Positions 2,650-12,165 of a stretch of 64,000 nt of DNA are shown in pieces. A program made the position numbers and the translations under genes. How positions within the stretch are numbered: the stretch's first letter is position 1; each line of letters opens with the position of its first letter. The notes beneath the pieces are model-generated. The model saw only the letters and a program-made list of their open reading frames with translations, ran no database searches and was not told where the DNA came from. This stretch comes from Octopus vulgaris. Taxonomy: Eukaryota. Location of the stretch: positions 37,386,001-37,450,000 of the forward strand of contig OX597815.1 in the NCBI GenBank assembly GCA_951406725.2. Reading direction: 5' to 3'.

Positions 2650-2706
2650 CAGAATGAGATAAAAATCCAAGGCTGTGTAAGATTTGAGAACATTTATAAA
2701 GAGAAG

Positions 2707-2754
2707 GTTTTACAGCTGTTTCTGGGATATTTTATATATCCCTTCATCGGAGAC
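2707..2754 (-). ncRNA. Minimal hammerhead ribozyme motif (left arm of palindrome)
   Basis: Minus strand reads gtct-CCGATGA-a-gggatat/ataaa/atatccc-a-GAAAC-agct-GTA-aaac; stem I has one mismatch. Confidence 0.65.
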
Positions 2755-3026
2755 GGTGTGAGAGAATGGTTAAGCAATAGTTAATCTAGATAAGATATGA
2801 AATAGAGCATGAAGTGGGGGAATGAAAATAGACGTTAGATATGCAGGTATATTGTATCTGTAGTTCTGTTATTTTGGTAGAATGGTATATATATACTATT
2901 CTGCCTAAATAATGGAAATACAGATACAATATCCCTGCATATCTCACGTCTATTTTCATTCCTCCACTTCACTCTCTATTCCATACCTTCTCTAGAATAA
3001 CTATTGCTTAACAATTCTCTCACACC

Positions 3027-3074
3027 GTCTCCGATGAAGGGATATATAAAATATCCCGGAAACAGCTGTAAGAC
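3027..3074 (+). ncRNA. Minimal type I hammerhead ribozyme motif
   Basis: gtct(stem I)-CCGATGA-a-gggatat/ataaa/atatccc(stem II)-g-GAAAC-agct-GTA-agac(stem I'). Stem III is the palindrome ACAGCTGT; predicted cleavage after 3070. Confidence 0.75.
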
Positions 3075-3969
3075 CTATTTATATAACTTAGATAAACTTA
3101 GATATGTTTCGACCAATGATTGGTCAAGGCCATGTCTAACTTAATAGCACCACCTGATAGGATGATTTGAATCCTGTTTAAGTCAAGTTTTGTTTATGGT
3201 CCATTCAAGTCGTGAGTTTTTGTTGGGTGAGTTGTATCCAATTATGGGTGGCTTATCTGGTATTCCTTGAAGGAATCTATCCAGACTCCGTTTAAAGTTG
3301 ATGGGATCCTTTTCCTCTTTGATCTCTTTCGGGACAATGTTAAATAGGGCAGGGCCTGTTGAGGAAAAGAAATTATGTTGTAGTGTACATGTATGCTGTG
3401 ATCTTGAATTGGGCAGGGGACGTATGGCCCTTGGTCCCAGTCTTGGATGAACCTTGAAGCTAATGTTCAGGTCGTTCGGGCAAAGTTGGCAGTATAGTCT
3501 CCACATCGTACAAATGATGTACCGCTCACGGCGACGCTGCAGAGAGTAGAGTTTCAAGGCTTTAAGGCGATCCCAATAATCGAGAGCAGCTATGCCTTCA
3601 ATTCGTTTACTTATTGCTCTCTGGGGAGATTCAATCCTCGAGATGTTTTGTCTTGTATGGGGAGACCACAGTGGGCAGCAGTATTCGAGGTATGGCCGTA
3701 CAAAAGAGGAGAAAAGTGGTATGATGACACCTTGTTCTCTGGACCGGAAAGATCCAGGAACTCATCCTACGAGCTATATCGACCTTCTTGTTGATGTGTG
3801 CACTCCAACTGAGATCGTCATCAACAATTACACCCAGGTCTCTGATATTGTTAGAGGCTGTGAGCGGTTCCCCTGAAGGAAGAGAGTATGACTGTTTTAG
3901 TGAGGAATTTCTTCCAAAATGCATCAGCTCAAATTTTCCCTCATTCAGTTGTATTTTGTTTCTGTCTGC

Positions 3970-5124
3970 TCATTGACTCACAGCATATAGATCAGACTGG
4001 AGTTGAGTTCGGTCTGCTTCTTCATTGACGATTTGCTGGAGCTTAGTGTCATCAGCAAATATTTTCACTTTGCAGTGATGTACGACACTGGAAAGGTCGT
4101 TTATGTAGATTATGAAGAGTAACGGACCCAAGACAGTCCCCTGGGGGACACTGCTGGTGACTTTTACTGGGCTTGAGTGGACTCCATCAACTACAACATG
4201 TTGTGTTCTATTCGCCAGGAAACACTTGATGCAGCGTAGAACTTTTCCACGGATTCCAACATTTGCCAATTTTGAGAGTAGGATATTATGGTCTACCCTG
4301 TGGAACGCTTTACTGAAGTCAAGGTATATGACATCAGAGTTCGAACCTGTTCCCAAGGCTTTGAGTACATCTTCAATGTGGTGTAAGAGCTGTGTTAGAC
4401 AGTCCCTGCCACAGCGAAAGCCATGCTGATTTGCATTTAGGAGTTTGTGGGTCTCCAGGAAGTCAGCTATCCTTGATCTTAACACTCTTTCAAACACTTT
4501 GATGATGTGGGAGGTGAGTGAGATTGGGCGATAGTTGAGTGCGATGGATCTGTTTCCCTGTTTAAAAACCTGGATGACTGACTGGGATAGAAATTGTTTC
4601 GGTATATAACCTGCGTCTAGCGAATTTCTCCATAGGTTGGTCAGAGAGATTGCAAGTTGGTGTCTACATTCCTTCAGCAGACTAGCGTGGAATCTATTAG
4701 AGCCTACAGCAGAGTAGTATTTGACCTCATTTATTGCTGTTATGATGTCAGTGGCAGTGAAGGTTATGTCTGAGATTTTATGTTGAGAGTCAACTTCGTT
4801 CGCTTCTCTTACGTCAATATCAGTGGGAACACTAAAGACAGAGAAGTATTGTTTCTGCAGTATTTCTGCCATTTCTTCAGCATCGTGTTGGGGAATGCCG
4901 TTATCATCAATCAATGGCCCAATGGGTGAGACAGTGGTTCTATGCTTATTTGCATAAGAATAGAACACTTTTGGGTTCTGTTTGATGTTTTTGATTACCC
5001 ACTGTTCCTCCACAGCTCTTTGATTTTCAATGGAGGTTTTCAGGTCGTTCTGCAGATGAAGTTTTTCCAGCTCTAGCCTTTTCATTGTTGTTGAATGTGG
5101 ATGTTGTATGTGGGAATATTTCAA
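3970..5124 (-). pseudogene. Reverse transcriptase portion of CR1-like ORF2
   Basis: 384-aa ORF with canonical non-LTR RT motifs including FADD; truncated by a stop and an upstream duplication frameshift. Confidence 0.9.
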
Positions 5125-5586
5125 TTGGTTGATTTTTTTGTTGAGTCTCTTGATGCGCCTGATGAGTGTTTTTTTCTTTTTAGGGAGCCAGTTTCTGGTT
5201 GTGTTAGTAGATTTCGTGGGAGCGTGTTTTGAGCATGTATAGGTGACAATGGCCCAATGGGTGAGACAGTGGTTCTATGCTTATTTGCATAAGAATAGAA
5301 CACTTTTGGGTTCTGTTTGATGTTTTTGATTACCCACTGTTCCTCCACAGCTCTTTGATTTTCAATGGAGGTTTTCAGGTCGTTCTGCAGATGAAGTTTT
5401 TCCAGCTCTAGCCTTTTCATTGTTGTTGAATGTGGATGTTGTATGTGGGAATATTTTAATTGGTTGATTTTTTTGTTGAGTCTCTTGATGCGCCTGATGA
5501 GTGTTCTTTTCTTTTTAGGGAGCCAGTTTCTGTTTGTGTTAGTAGATTTCGTGGGAGCGTGTTTTGAGCATGTATAGGTGACAATG
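4912..5586. repeat. 335-bp tandem duplication inside the LINE
   Basis: caatg recurs at 4912, 5247 and 5582; the two units are near-identical and both encode MKRLELEKLHLQNDLKTSIENQ. Confidence 0.95.
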
Positions 5587-6383: not shown

Positions 6384-6427
<44 letters not shown>

Positions 6428-7135
6428 ATCCCCCTCTCCCATATATGATGTTTCGATAATGAGTAAAAACGTTGCTCGTAAAAATGCCGCCTTGTTTTTA
6501 AGCCCAGCTTTTGCACAAGTGTCGCATAAATGCCTTTTCTAACCTAAATGCAATACAGAATCATGACATTTGGCATGGTTTACAGACATATCTCCTGAGA
6601 TCACTAATAGAAAAACATTTATTACACGCTTAGCAGACAGATGTTCTTGCAGATGATAAATACATATATTATTACCTTGCTGCTTCATGTATCTGTGTAG
6701 TTAATGAGAATCGACTCAGAAAGTCAAGCTTGGTTACAAGTTGTACATATCTATAGTGTTTCTATTCCGTGCATACTTTGTGTCCCTTTCAGTTCTGCGT
6801 ATTTAATGTGATTCTCTTTAAAATTCACGAGCACGTTGATTGTATTTTCTTTTCCAGGATACATTATCACTTAGAATTGTTTATCCTCAGTATTAGAGAT
6901 TTTACGATCAATTTAATCGATGGTTCCCTTACACCACAATGTTTGACTTTGTGCTAATACTGCAAATACTAGCCGTATATATTGGTTTTCTAACTTAAAT
7001 TTTTAATCTGCTGTTTGATTTACCACCATTGCCTGACTCTAAGGTGCTTTATCAAGATGTTCTCTGAGACGTTTTACTCTCGTCTTCGAGTACCGTAAGC
7101 TCTGTAAAATTTGACGAGCACTGTCCTTCTCTACT

Positions 7136-7500
7136 AGTAATAAAACGCCTTGATTCTTTTCTATCATAAGAACTATATATCAAAGGACTGCAAATAGGGA
7201 CACCTGTACTCCATGTAACTTTAATATCTTGTTTTTCCAGCTCAAATACGTAATAAACAAATACACCAATCACTGCCAGGGTGACAAGAAACATAAAAAC
7301 TGGTGGCGGGCAGCAAGAGTAGTTCGCAAGTAAATCCTTTTGTTTCCGGATAGGAACAATGCTTACAATGGCTGCTTCCACAACACCACTAACTTTCACT
7401 TTATCTCGGGAAAGTAGAGCATCTTCACCAGCCATCAAAGTTGCGAATTCGTCATAATTTATGAAGGAATCTGCATTACTGTTGGCTTCTGCCAACATTT
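7136..7500 (-). pseudogene. Fragment of an EF-hand-containing rhomboid protease gene (RHBDL1/RHBDL3-like), lacking the catalytic region
   Basis: ANSNADSFINYDEFATLM (EF-hand loop), YSCCPPPVFMFLVTLAVIGVFVYY (pre-TM1/TM1 signature), SPLIYSSYDRKESRRFIT (L1 loop, WR motif decayed); similarity stops before TM2. Confidence 0.85.
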
Positions 7501-9380
7501 TATGTAGGTTTCGATTCCCTGATTTATGTAGGTTTCGATTCCCTAAAGCCCTGAAGTGATGTTATTCATGAGGCGTTGAAAAGTGGCCGGGGCATTCAAG
7601 GTGTCGTTATATGAAATTATTATCTGAAAATATTATCTGGAATCTCTTTCGAGATGTTTTTGGAAATCTCTTGCGAGTTCGAGTTACCCATAGAACGAGT
7701 CACAGCACATGAGGAAAAAACACCAGGAATAATTTCCTGAAGGGATTCAGTGCTCTCAGAAGTGCTTGGCCCAATGCTAACATGATGATCAGACAAAACC
7801 TTGGACCCTGTTAAATCATTTCCAATAAGCAAGTCTACACCTGAAACTAGGATAGTTTTCTTAACACCAACTTTCACCAAACCAGACACAAAATTTGACT
7901 GCAAATCAACAAAATAAGAGGTGCACCTGAAATTCCACTAATACCCTCTAATAATACATCAGAGTTAGCAGAAAACACTTCGGAGACAGGAAGAGTACCT
8001 TCTAACAATAGAGACTGGAGTGCGCCTGTGTCCCTCAAAATAGTAATGGTTCGTAATGTGGATTTATCACCCTCAAGTGAGACAAACCCTTTTGAAATAA
8101 AAGGTAATTACCCCTCTTCAACAAAAACGGCAGGCTTTGGTGACTGAACTCTTGAAACAAACTGCTCCTCAGTGTTAATAATGTCGGAAATAGGCTGAGA
8201 CTTGACATTCACAAAAGCGTGGATCAAGGTTTGTGACTGATTTTTTAACTTAAGCTTTTTACACTCTGAAATCAGATGGCCGGCCTTTCTACAATATCTA
8301 CAAATAATTGTTGAAGGAAAATTAGAAACAAATGGACTGATTGACTTTCTTAACTCTGAACCACTAGACTTGTTAGGATTCGAACCTGACCGAGCTGAAT
8401 AAATTGACTTACTTGTCTGACCTAACTCGAAATTATCCGGATGATAATAACAATACAACTTGAACTCACGCTTGTGAGTAATAGAATAATCATCTGCTAA
8501 ACTAGCTGCCTCTTGTAACTGTTCTACTCTCTGCTCTTCGAAATATGTCTTAACATCAACATTGAACACATTGTTTGAACTCCTCTAATAATATAAGCTG
8601 TCTCAATTAGTGAAAATCTTCCCCAACTTCTTTTGAAAATTTGTTTGATAGGTGGTGTACCTATCAAACAAATTTTCCTTCTTTCTAGCAAATTCTACAT
8701 AAGTATCCTCACTTCTTTTCTTGGACTGTCTAAATTTTTGTCTATATGCTTCAGGGACCAGTTCATAAGCTTTTAGAATATCCTGTTTCACCACCTCATA
8801 ACTCAAACTTGCTTCGTTCGATAAATTTGAATAGACTCCCTGAGCCCTGCCTTTTAAAACACTTTGTTTTAACATTGTGCAATATTCCAGAGGCCATCTA
8901 GAATTTATTGCCACCTCTTCAAAAATGAAGGAAAAATTTATCAACATTCTTTTCACTAAATGGAGGCACAAGTTTAATATTCTTAGCTACATCAAAATCT
9001 TTCTGATCACGAGGAGTGTCCAACTTTCTACTCTGTAACTCCATTTCTTTCAATTTTAATTCTTTTTGAATTTCCATTTCCTTTATTGCTTTTTGAAATT
9101 CTAATTCCAATTTCCTCAACTCAAACTCTTCTGTTTTCTCTGTTTTCAACAAGGACAAAGCCGAATCTTCGAAAATTTCTTCATCAGCCAAATGTTCCAA
9201 AACCACTTTGAAAATCTCTCTCTTTTTCATGGTTGACTTAACTTCATCCATATAGTAATGTTTGGCCAATAGCAACAATTCTGATTTAAAAAAAATCCTT
9301 AATTGCTCCACACTGGGAAATTCAATAAATTCTTCAACCTTAAACTCCATATTCTCGAAGAGAAACTTTGTTGTCCACAT
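7499..9380 (-). mobile_element. Degenerate Ty3/Gypsy LTR retrotransposon internal region (Gmr1-like gag, protease, RT remnant)
   Basis: Gag LVPPFSEKNVDKFF...YELVPEAYRQKFR; zinc knuckle CRYCRKAGHLISEC; protease ILRDTGALQSLL at ~8005-8042; RT remnant LNAPATFQRLMNN...GIETYI at ~7500-7600. No LTR pair identified. Confidence 0.9.
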
Positions 9381-9722
9381 TTAATCTTGTGAATATCTCT
9401 GGTCATTATATTTCACTTGCTTTAATTGATAAATTGTGAACGGATTCGAAGGTTTATATACGTATGTATAAATTGTTATTAATGAGAAGAGATTTAATTT
9501 TAGTGACTTTGTATTAAATATTTGGTGTTAGTTTCGGTATAATCCAATCCGTTTTCTGTTTTATAAGCAATACCGGACAGTTATGAATGCCTCCCCTAAA
9601 AACCTCTCAAAACTTCTGGAATGCACCCCGTATAATATAATATAATATAACACACACATACACATACACATATATATGTATGTATGTATATCTATCTATC
9701 TATCTATCTATCGTAAATTATA

Positions 9723-10432
9723 CGATCTACCAATTCCAAATTAGTTTACTGGGCATTTAGTAGAGAAACCCGAGTTCGAGATTAACATATTCATTTTTTA
9801 TTCATTCTGGTTTTATAATAGCGTGCCTCATAAATTCTTTTTTTCGTGGGTAAGGTTTTAACTACCCGTTCTAGCATGTAAGGAATCCTGTCAAAGGTTT
9901 CCTCTCTGTGTATAAAAATATTTTATACACTTTATATTTTTAAAAATATGTTAGGTTTTATGACTTTTATTTAGGCATGCTAACCACTGGTAAAAGGTTC
10001 CTTCAATATATTTCCCTAATATTTACGATAAAAATATTTATAGTTCTGAGGGTATATAGAACAAAATATTAGATTTATTTATTTAATGCTGGACTATGTT
10101 TACGCTTGCGCATTAAGTTCGAATCCATAACGGATAAAGATATGGCTGTCTTGCGCACGTGTTTTCGGTACGTATTTGCAACTGCATATTTAATCATTAA
10201 TTAGCAATCTCTCTGACGATCTAGAAATTCCAAACTAGTTTATTTGGCAATAATAGAGAAACTCGAATTCGGGATTAACTTATTTTTGTTCATTCTGTCT
10301 GGTGTTATAGCAGCATGCCTCATGGATTCTTTTTTTTTCGTGGTTTGGGTTTTAACTGCCCTTTCTAGCATGTGAGGAGTCCTGTCAAAGGTCTTCTCTC
10401 TGTGTATAAAAACATTTTATACACCTTATATA
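9723..10432. repeat. Two diverged ~210-bp direct repeats (about 9723-9936 and 10217-10432)
   Basis: Both run cgatcta...aattccaaa...ctagcatg...cctgtcaaagg...gtgtataaaaa.attttatacac. Confidence 0.85.
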
Positions 10433-10477: not shown

Positions 10478-12165
10478 ATCACCTTGACCGACCAGTCCGT
10501 CAGGCGTCCATTTGACACCGCTGGTCACAGCACGCTGTCCACTCCTCTCTGGATCGCGCCTTTCTCATCCACGTGATCCCAATCGTCCTCCTGAAATCGT
10601 AACTCCACCGTCGTGGAAGTCTTCCGGGTGGTCTTTTCCGCTCACGCGGGTACCACTCGACAGCTGCGTGCGTCCACCGCTTATCGGTGAGCCGGGCGAC
10701 GTGTCTAGCCCATCTATACTTGCTGCGTGTATACTCTGCGATGACATGTCTCACGCCGGACTTCTTTCTGATGATCTTGCTACTTATGTGCTCTCTCAAC
10801 GAGATACCAAGCATTGACCTTTCCATGGCTCTTTGAGCCGTTACCAGTCTTTGCTCTTCTCTCTTTGTGGTAGCCCATGGTTCACTACCATATAACATTG
10901 CAGGCAGAACTGCACTGTTAATGAGGTTGGCGCGGGTGGTCCTGTCCAACTTTCCCTTGAGCACATCCCTTATGCCATTGAACGCCTTCCATCCGGCCCT
11001 CACTCTCCGTGAGATCTCCTTTTTGACATCCCGGCACATATTTACTTCCTGTCCTAGGTAGACATATTCCCTCACCTCCTCTATTTCATCACTGCCGATC
11101 ACCATTCGACCCGTTGGTACATTGTCTGACCGCATGTACTTTGTTTTCATGCGGTTCATCTTGAGACCTACTGCAGAACTTTTGATGTCGAGCTCCGTCA
11201 GCATGGTCTGAAGCTGATCCATGTTTTCAGCGATGAGTACGAAGTCGTCAGCGAAGCGGAGGTGAGTGAGGAGCTCGCCATTAATGTTGACACCACCTTG
11301 CCAGTCGATGCCTCTGATGATCTGTTCGAGACATGCAGTGAAAAGTATTGGGGAGATTGTATCTCCTTGCTTCACTCCCTTCTCGACCGGCACTCGTATG
11401 GGTGATGACAGTAGAGCTATGTCGGTGGTGCATCCGGAATTTGCCTCTCTGAGCAGCTGCACATATTGCGCCTCTGCAGCGAGTTCAGCACTGCGTTGGT
11501 TTCGACGCTATCGAAGACCTTCTCATAATCTATAAACGCAACGCAAAGAGGCAGCTTGTACTCATTTGCTCGCTCAAGCAGTTGCGTTAGAGTAAATATG
11601 TGGTCAATTGTGCTGTAGTTCTTTCGGAAGCCTGCTTGTTCCCTCGGTTGTTGTTCGTCGAGACGACGTGACAACCGGTTCAGAATTATCTTCGTGAACA
11701 GCTTGTACACGTGAGACAGCAGGCATATGGGTCGGTAGTTCTTTAGATCTTCTCTGTCGCCCTTCTTATACAGCAGGATGGTATTTGACTCTTTCCAAAG
11801 CGAGGGAATTCTTCCCTCGTCTAGATAGTGCGTAAATCGCTCAGCGAGGATTTTCCAGAGCTGCTCTCTGCCTGACTTTAGCACCTCTGATGTTATACCG
11901 TCTTTCCCTGGAACCTTTCCGTTTTTCATCGAGCCGATGGCTCTTTCAACCTCACTGACAAGGATAGGTGGCACGTTTTCTTCCTGTTGAAGTGGTGGTA
12001 ACGGCTGGACATTTCTGGTAGACTTAAAGAGCTTGGTGTAGAAGTCTTCACAAACTTTTTCCATCTCGTTGACCGGTATTCCATCTGTATTTTTCAGGGC
12101 CGTCACCTCCGATCTATATAGTACCATGTCCCTCTTGCATTTCTTGAGGCTTTTCTATACATATG
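10478..12165 (-). mobile_element. 5'-truncated RTE-clade LINE (RT and C-terminus)
   Basis: PGKDGITSE, NYRPICLLS, EQAGFR, FIDYEKVFDSV, KGVKQGDTISP, LRFADD, YVYLGQ, MLYGSE, RPPGR. One frameshift near 11460; lies between TA-rich microsatellites. Confidence 0.95.

Follow-up and report, generated by a model that had tools for sequence, protein, structure and literature searches.

The closest described counterparts of the locus presented here are LTR-mediated retrocopies, reported by Tan et al. 2016 from fly, mosquito and zebrafish, and from chicken, mouse and human (PMC5131818). According to the available part of that paper, integration by integrase needs both LTRs, microsimilarity at the joints has a median of 6 nt and is lacking from 4 of 29 joints, and secondary retroposition is optional. 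The same text refers to host mRNA within LTR elements in the human FAM8A1 piece in HERV-K, in maize Bs1 and in yeast Ty-mRNA chimeras. Judged by these partial descriptions, the octopus piece resembles LTR-mediated retrocopies in being a partial, intron-free mRNA in the frame of an element, in the same orientation and free of poly(A) and target-site duplication. With FAM8A1/HERV-K, Bs1 and the Ty chimeras it has in common a fragment of host mRNA in LTR-element sequence; the FAM8A1/HERV-K piece, too, is said to be a pseudogene without transcription. By analogy, the octopus piece probably works like an LTR-mediated retrocopy. In the described LTR-mediated retrocopies, however, the element extends to both sides and includes LTRs, whereas the octopus piece has upstream element sequence only and no LTRs; its microhomology of 0-1 nt, its single copy and its mollusc host are further differences. 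Element sequence on both sides also sets FAM8A1/HERV-K, Bs1 and the Ty chimeras apart, and Bs1 has multiplied. As neither the two-sided element flanks nor both LTRs were found, we file the octopus piece only as a processed retrocopy and not as a full LTR-mediated retrocopy. Among the papers listed in our literature searches, none dealt with this locus or with cephalopod retrocopies mediated by LTR elements, and the terms 'retrocop' and 'pseudogene' are absent from the main text, as available, of an octopus repeat annotation (PMC13282606).

The window, i.e. the whole 64-kb stretch of DNA that was analysed, corresponds to C2:37,386,001-37,450,000. A DNA search of the same genome (10 of 10 candidates scored) assigned the rhomboid-derived piece on its minus strand (7503-7139) to three exons belonging to a single gene, which spans C1:92.556-92.650 Mb (Table 1). 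The parent introns of 9,756 and 5,501 nt (GT-AG) are missing from the window and both exon joints are exact, while on C1 the copied exons carry AG/GT flanks. The copy starts 88 nt inside the first exon and stops 23 nt short of the end of the third, both ends falling inside exons, and covers about residues 62-183 of the parent. In the window frame, 102 of 121 residues are identical to residues 64-184 of an Octopus sinensis rhomboid-related protein 2-like (P0001), the sole match among 545 longer candidates, in agreement with the earlier note, which had recognised a rhomboid. P0001 matches Pfam Rhomboid at 177-334 and, weakly and below the curated cut-off, an EF-hand at 61-86. The copy lacks residues 1-61 and 184-379 and has 20 substitutions in 120 codons relative to the C1 parent. 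An active rhomboid protease has a six-helix core with catalytic Ser and His; the fragment ends at residue 183, and S246 and H319, which we take to be the catalytic-motif residues, fall outside it. The segment is non-catalytic, as had been proposed.

Table 1. Positions of the features described in the text, numbered within the window
Feature	Positions	Strand	Remarks
3' flank, old host DNA	6690..7138	.	neither Gypsy nor later rhomboid exons; no poly(A)
148-codon ATG-to-stop frame	7052..7498	-	120 rhomboid codons and 28 flank codons
5' 132 nt of parent exon C1:92579766-92579612	7139..7270	-	91% identity
Entire parent exon C1:92585432-92585268 (165 nt)	7271..7435	-	linker and start of first hydrophobic segment; 95% identity
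3' 68 nt of parent exon C1:92595344-92595189	7436..7503	-	second EF-hand-like loop; 87% identity
24-nt head-to-tail tandem duplication (22-nt exact core)	7498..7545	-	over secondary deletion joint; 22/24 letters alike
72-nt RT piece	7526..7597	-	92-96% identical to RT of C3 and C9 copies
Gypsy gag-protease-linker remnant	7598..9354	-	stops and frameshifts; no LTR, no 5' leader
5' flank, host DNA	9355..9627	.	ends in roughly 55-nt high-copy repeat end (9575-9627)

A search of the genome with the whole of P0001 (19 of 19 candidates) returned nine exon matches of the C1 parent, the copy in the window and a single distant paralogue, located on C21, but neither a second rhomboid copy nor the missing 3' half. 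The paralogue exon (C21:37,330,415-37,330,600) is 39% identical to P0001 residues 185-247. The joint between RT and rhomboid was single-copy among 10/10, 13/13 and 19/19 candidates of three genome searches, in which no secondary retroposition was seen either. The intact, intron-bearing parent lies on C1 and the copy on C2, i.e. away from its parent, as is typical of a processed retrocopy. Alignment to the parent, which the earlier note had named as a check, showed the introns precisely spliced out. The piece is neither a native exon nor devoid of a rhomboid match, and the retrocopy claim therefore stands: 7503-7139 is an intron-free retrocopy in the same orientation as the Gypsy internal sequence. 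Likewise, the reported uninterrupted rhomboid segment of about 120 codons is indeed open over 120 codons; it is composed of three parent exons and not of one, and the last 28 codons of the frame (7138-7055) are unrelated flank, the rhomboid part ending at 7139. The exact joining of three separate parent exons refutes a native rhomboid exon, and an assembly chimera is refuted by independent contigs of other taxa, which run across both the 5' and 3' boundaries as well as across the joint of RT and rhomboid; no point could be found in favour of either, and their joint probability is practically nil.

We then turn to the joint itself. Read on the minus strand, NAPATFQRLMNNITSGL*GIETYI of the RT gives way to another GIETYI, after which a stop-free stretch (7561-7052) continues in a different frame. 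The 22-mers at 7499-7520 and 7523-7544 are identical, so the repeat of the earlier note is real, and they form the core of a longer tandem unit (7522-7545 and 7498-7521). DNA runs of organisms A, B, C and D were aligned on 6400-9900, best rows only. Among the matches listed, organism A (possibly the source sample) carried the window version over 6435-7575 with no differences, duplication included. In the listed matches of organisms B, C and D, by contrast, 78 other letters replaced 7506-7528, and in all three of them 4 nt were missing at 7388, producing a frameshift at about codon 37. The break at YIDD and the duplication were thus seen in organism A only, among the matches listed. Chimeric contigs of C and D part from the parent exon at the base that corresponds to window position 7503; counted by eye, their loose end agrees at 24 of 30 letters with the RT of the C3 sibling about 50-80 nt past YxDD. 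The 78 letters, known as a length and as this one 30-letter loose end in two runs (C and D), are in length exactly collinear with the RT of the C3 and C9 copies. From this length, its collinearity and the match of the loose end, it can be inferred that the original joint lies past the RT catalytic motif. The 78 further RT-length letters also indicate that the YIDD break and the 22-bp repeat of the window result from a later deletion and tandem duplication, and a loss of 79 nt minus a gain of 24 nt equals the 55-nt difference between the window and the B/C/D versions.

These comparisons alter the interpretation of the joint considerably. The RT does break off at YIDD in the window, as had been noticed, but this is not the point of capture, since in the listed matches of B, C and D the joint lies 78 letters further. 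The duplication is not a scar of capture, having arisen with the later lineage-specific deletion and duplication, and the 9-mer ctacataaa, proposed as a microhomology shared by both parents, is a product of the same deletion. At the original joint, exact microhomology amounts to 1 nt against the C3 sibling and to 0 against the C9 sibling, both taken as stand-ins for the donor copy; the second joint has been lost. As read from sibling frames, the ancestral form had both the RT-rhomboid and the linker-RT joint in frame; this has a chance of 1 in 9, a coincidence which we do not count as evidence of selection. In the window, the frame is shifted immediately upstream of the linker joint. Lineage-specific damage is found on both sides of the RT-rhomboid joint. 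The organism D contig across this joint ceases to align at 7275, at a distance of 4 nt from the second of the exon joints, and leaves 110 more letters unaligned, for which an insertion, a deletion or a retained intron are candidate causes. A DNA run of organism E contributed a weak piece of 39 letters at the locus; the parent exon was likewise missed in that run.

Upstream of the joint, the Gypsy remnant shares 84-93% identity with siblings located on C1, C3, C6, C9 and C16. The match starts about 3 nt ahead of the gag ATG, and Pfam matches to SCAN-like and zinc-knuckle domains in this remnant are weak and below cut-off. The linker meets the RT piece across a deletion of about 2 kb, with integrase and 5' RT gone; in the C9 sibling, the two lie about 2,040 nt apart with the integrase core in between. 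Pfam matches in this sibling begin with rve (weak, E 0.0015), followed by RVT_1 and RT_RNaseH. Integrase upstream of RT-RNase H is the order defining the Gmr1 clade of Gypsy, according to the parts available of two reports (PMC6238403, PMC8220671). The donor family is Gmr1-like by domain order, and the window copy has lost the integrase and RNase H which the C9 sibling retains. The family is small, with about six copies having internal sequence above 80%. The C3 sibling holds an LTR pair, in which 29 of 415 aligned letters differ; three of four mapped siblings lack one end in the 20-30 kb examined. Near the window copy, neither an LTR nor an RT-RNase H 3' part, save the RT piece in Table 1, was found from -30 kb to +64 kb, in searches in which 40 of 48 and 23 of 23 candidates were scored. 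When three siblings were compared at high sensitivity with the whole window and 30 kb of DNA beyond it downstream, the matches listed, apart from the parts already known, were simple repeats only. A chimeric element, as the earlier note had put it, is not supported: the locus has no LTR, no 3' Gypsy part over 30 kb downstream or 54 kb upstream, and one copy of the joint.

Several further observations concern this family. Within gag, 43 nt at 8635-8677 are 88% identical to the reverse complement of this very segment, and 25 nt agree at 100% with the C1 sibling in reverse, resembling a small fold-back insertion. One sibling (C3:37,583,830-37,587,211) has both LTRs and RT-RNase H, with early gag joined directly to the end of integrase, which indicates that internal deletions are common in the family. 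At C3:312,989-313,173, 185 nt repeat, at 99% identity, the end of the LTR and the region of the primer site known from the C3 sibling, which lies 37 Mb away. Nearly identical RNase H-LTR or LTR remnants occur in pairs about 50 kb apart (C24:28,790,806-28,791,924 on the plus strand and 28,840,043-28,841,255 on the minus strand; C12:79.868 and 79.919 Mb), which suggests segmental or inverted duplications.

Both flanks consist of ordinary host DNA, with two different kinds of old repeats. Alignments of the 3' flank to Gypsy 3' parts did not score above shuffles, and neither did those searching both flanks for remnants of LTR or leader; Pfam gave zero matches in the 3' flank (six frames) and in the 5' flank (three frames). 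The 3' flank has a weak, old-repeat-like match to C1:167.47 Mb and one 49-nt match, the extension of which gives no more than an old alignment, roughly like that of a repeat. A second captured mRNA in the 3' flank was considered and rejected, no exon-like match of similar age being present, as was an enclosing DNA transposon, since each flank matches a repeat of another kind and the two do not match one another. The repeat end closing the 5' flank is presumably mariner-like. Elsewhere in the 64-kb window, no host exons were recognised by eye among the long ORFs. The window also contains a near-perfect palindrome at 2705-3076 (191-nt arms, 91% complementary) and a 335-nt tandem duplication at 4912-5546 (99% identical), a recent duplication or an assembly artefact, within a LINE-type endonuclease-RT relic. 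A fairly intact LINE-type RT, which we assume to be RTE-like, lies on the minus strand at 10500-12154 and has two long frames of 335 and 245 codons.

As for the origin of the locus, we consider it probable that it is a dead retrocopy made by template switching, whatever its route of entry. Copies made by LINEs have poly(A) and a target-site duplication as hallmarks. Here, 740 nt of 3' flank contain no A-run of at least 8, the boundaries share only 5-6-mers, a length expected by chance, and 3' exons or the 3' end of the gene are absent nearby and elsewhere. Although age could have erased the hallmarks, the piece is in this respect unlike a LINE-made copy, and we counted this in favour of template switching. 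So did we count the similar age of both halves, which differ by 8.6% from the parent and by 7-8% from the nearest Gypsy siblings, compared with 7% between the C3 LTRs. Finally, partial mRNA stands in place of part of the element reading frame, as in the cases described in the available text of PMC5131818, which was also counted in favour.

Alternatively, two independent insertions, a rhomboid retrocopy made by a LINE or Penelope element and a Gypsy copy, might have been joined by deletions, with the 3' half of the retrocopy removed. The fact that the original joint has almost no microhomology, the frequency of deletions at the locus and the abundance of LINE-type elements in the window are all in line with this. 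However, a member of a rare family would have had to insert next to an equally uncommon event, a retrocopy, with orientation shared and timing similar, and the small size of the Gypsy family makes such a chance neighbourhood unlikely; nor is there a remnant of poly(A), 3' exon or UTR. The position of both rhomboid ends away from exon boundaries argues, in addition, against a splice-trap route. We regard two insertions as an unlikely origin.

Given template switching, the detailed history which we tentatively favour is that of a switch between host mRNA and Gypsy RNA, integrated as a whole element that later lost both ends and is now non-functional. Host rhomboid mRNA would have been co-packaged with Gypsy RNA, and during minus-strand synthesis RT would have switched from about codon 62 of rhomboid to a site about 80 nt past YxDD. 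A further jump, or a later deletion, from RT to linker may have removed the integrase. The chimera would then have integrated as a whole element, and both LTRs and the 3' half would have been lost before the taxa split. In the window lineage only, 79 nt would have been lost between two 4-nt repeats (ACAT), followed by the 24-nt tandem duplication, by which the rhomboid piece would have left the RT frame.

Several points were counted against this history. Gypsy sequence after the retrocopy, and an LTR in the range searched, are absent; the 0-1 nt of microhomology at the original joint is below the 6-nt median given in the available text of PMC5131818; and no empty (pre-insertion) allele was seen in the runs examined, so that the entry route is a matter of inference. 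Contigs of A, B and C span both the 3' and the 5' boundary, those of B and C reaching 7192 and 9312-9623 (among the matches listed). Hence the LTR-less structure is older than the A/B/C split, and an eroded element requires two end deletions older than these taxa.

The same boundaries bear on another possibility, namely that the template-switch cDNA never had genomic LTRs and that end-joining used an incomplete chimera to patch a break in a chromosome, with no involvement of integrase. Capture of cDNA at breaks is known for yeast Ty1. Both ends lack any trace of LTR in A, B and C alike (among the matches listed), there is no target-site duplication, and no later deletions of the ends are required. 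On the other hand, siblings of the same age have often lost an end (three of four), so erosion suffices to explain the missing ends, and filler sequence or microhomology with the flanks can be judged only with the empty site. Break-patching appears doubtful to us, if somewhat less so than two insertions, and later erosion of a whole element is retained as the working history.

The ancestral continuity of frame allows for a more far-reaching idea, which we consider rather improbable. The founder might have been a Gmr1-type element in which integrase, most of RT and RNase H were swapped for a host EF-hand and membrane-anchor module, with a continuous gag-protease-RT stub-rhomboid frame, and which entered without LTRs. 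If this were true, the locus would record a Gag-Pol chimera that was tethered to the membrane and short-lived, and no LTR-mediated capture of mRNA would have been traced in a cephalopod before it.

Finally, we examined if the open frame could represent a functional new gene, a non-catalytic EF-hand and single-pass membrane peptide under selection in the window lineage. The 120 rhomboid codons are free of stops and indels, as opposed to 10-16 gap openings per 1.75 kb in the neighbouring gag-protease region compared with two siblings (gaps common to the copies compared). The frame has an in-frame ATG at 7498 and one strong hydrophobic segment (residues 67-85), and dN/dS is below 1. However, the 31 of 360 nt that differ from the C1 parent (8.6%), 9 of them synonymous and 22 non-synonymous, give a dN/dS of 0.67, which is not different from 1 (Fisher p 0.36). 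Three sites keep the P0001 or other-taxon state in the window, so some of the differences, among them a part of the synonymous ones, arose in the parent. Under simulated neutral change, the frame stayed free of stops by chance with a frequency of 0.36-0.46, i.e. about 0.4. The 31 changes show no skew of the kind expected of inherited A-to-I edits (6 A>G and 4 T>C). The copied piece contains a single EF-hand-like loop whose partner is missing, W180 of the parent's loop motif is R, no LTR promoter is present at the retrocopy, and the window ORF had zero Pfam matches at E<=1. Six of 24 listed runs were aligned, and no RNA run was listed with the locus. In a presumed RNA run of organism E, the contig at the exon examined was that of the spliced parent, and a chimeric one was absent; neither result weighs for or against expression.

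A functional retrogene would keep its frame across taxa and have a dN/dS significantly below 1, whereas here the frame is shifted in three of three related taxa (among the matches listed) and the divergence agrees with neutral change. That the frame is open cannot be taken as evidence for function. A functional gene is accordingly very improbable, and a working peptide of the kind suggested by the earlier note, possibly Ca-binding and membrane-anchored, finds no backing in these data; the retrocopy is probably a non-functional, dead relic today.

The locus is real and well resolved, yet ordinary in kind: retrocopies of this kind are already known, and it points to no new protein or mechanism. 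It also calls for caution: the most striking features of one assembly, namely the break exactly at the catalytic motif, the repeat at the junction and the unbroken frame, proved on comparison of related taxa to be accidents that occurred later and in one lineage. Its shared and private indels are usable as markers among related octopus taxa. With this locus, the range of RNA-based gene copying linked to LTR elements comes to include octopuses, where it is tied to a Gypsy family with the Gmr1 domain order.
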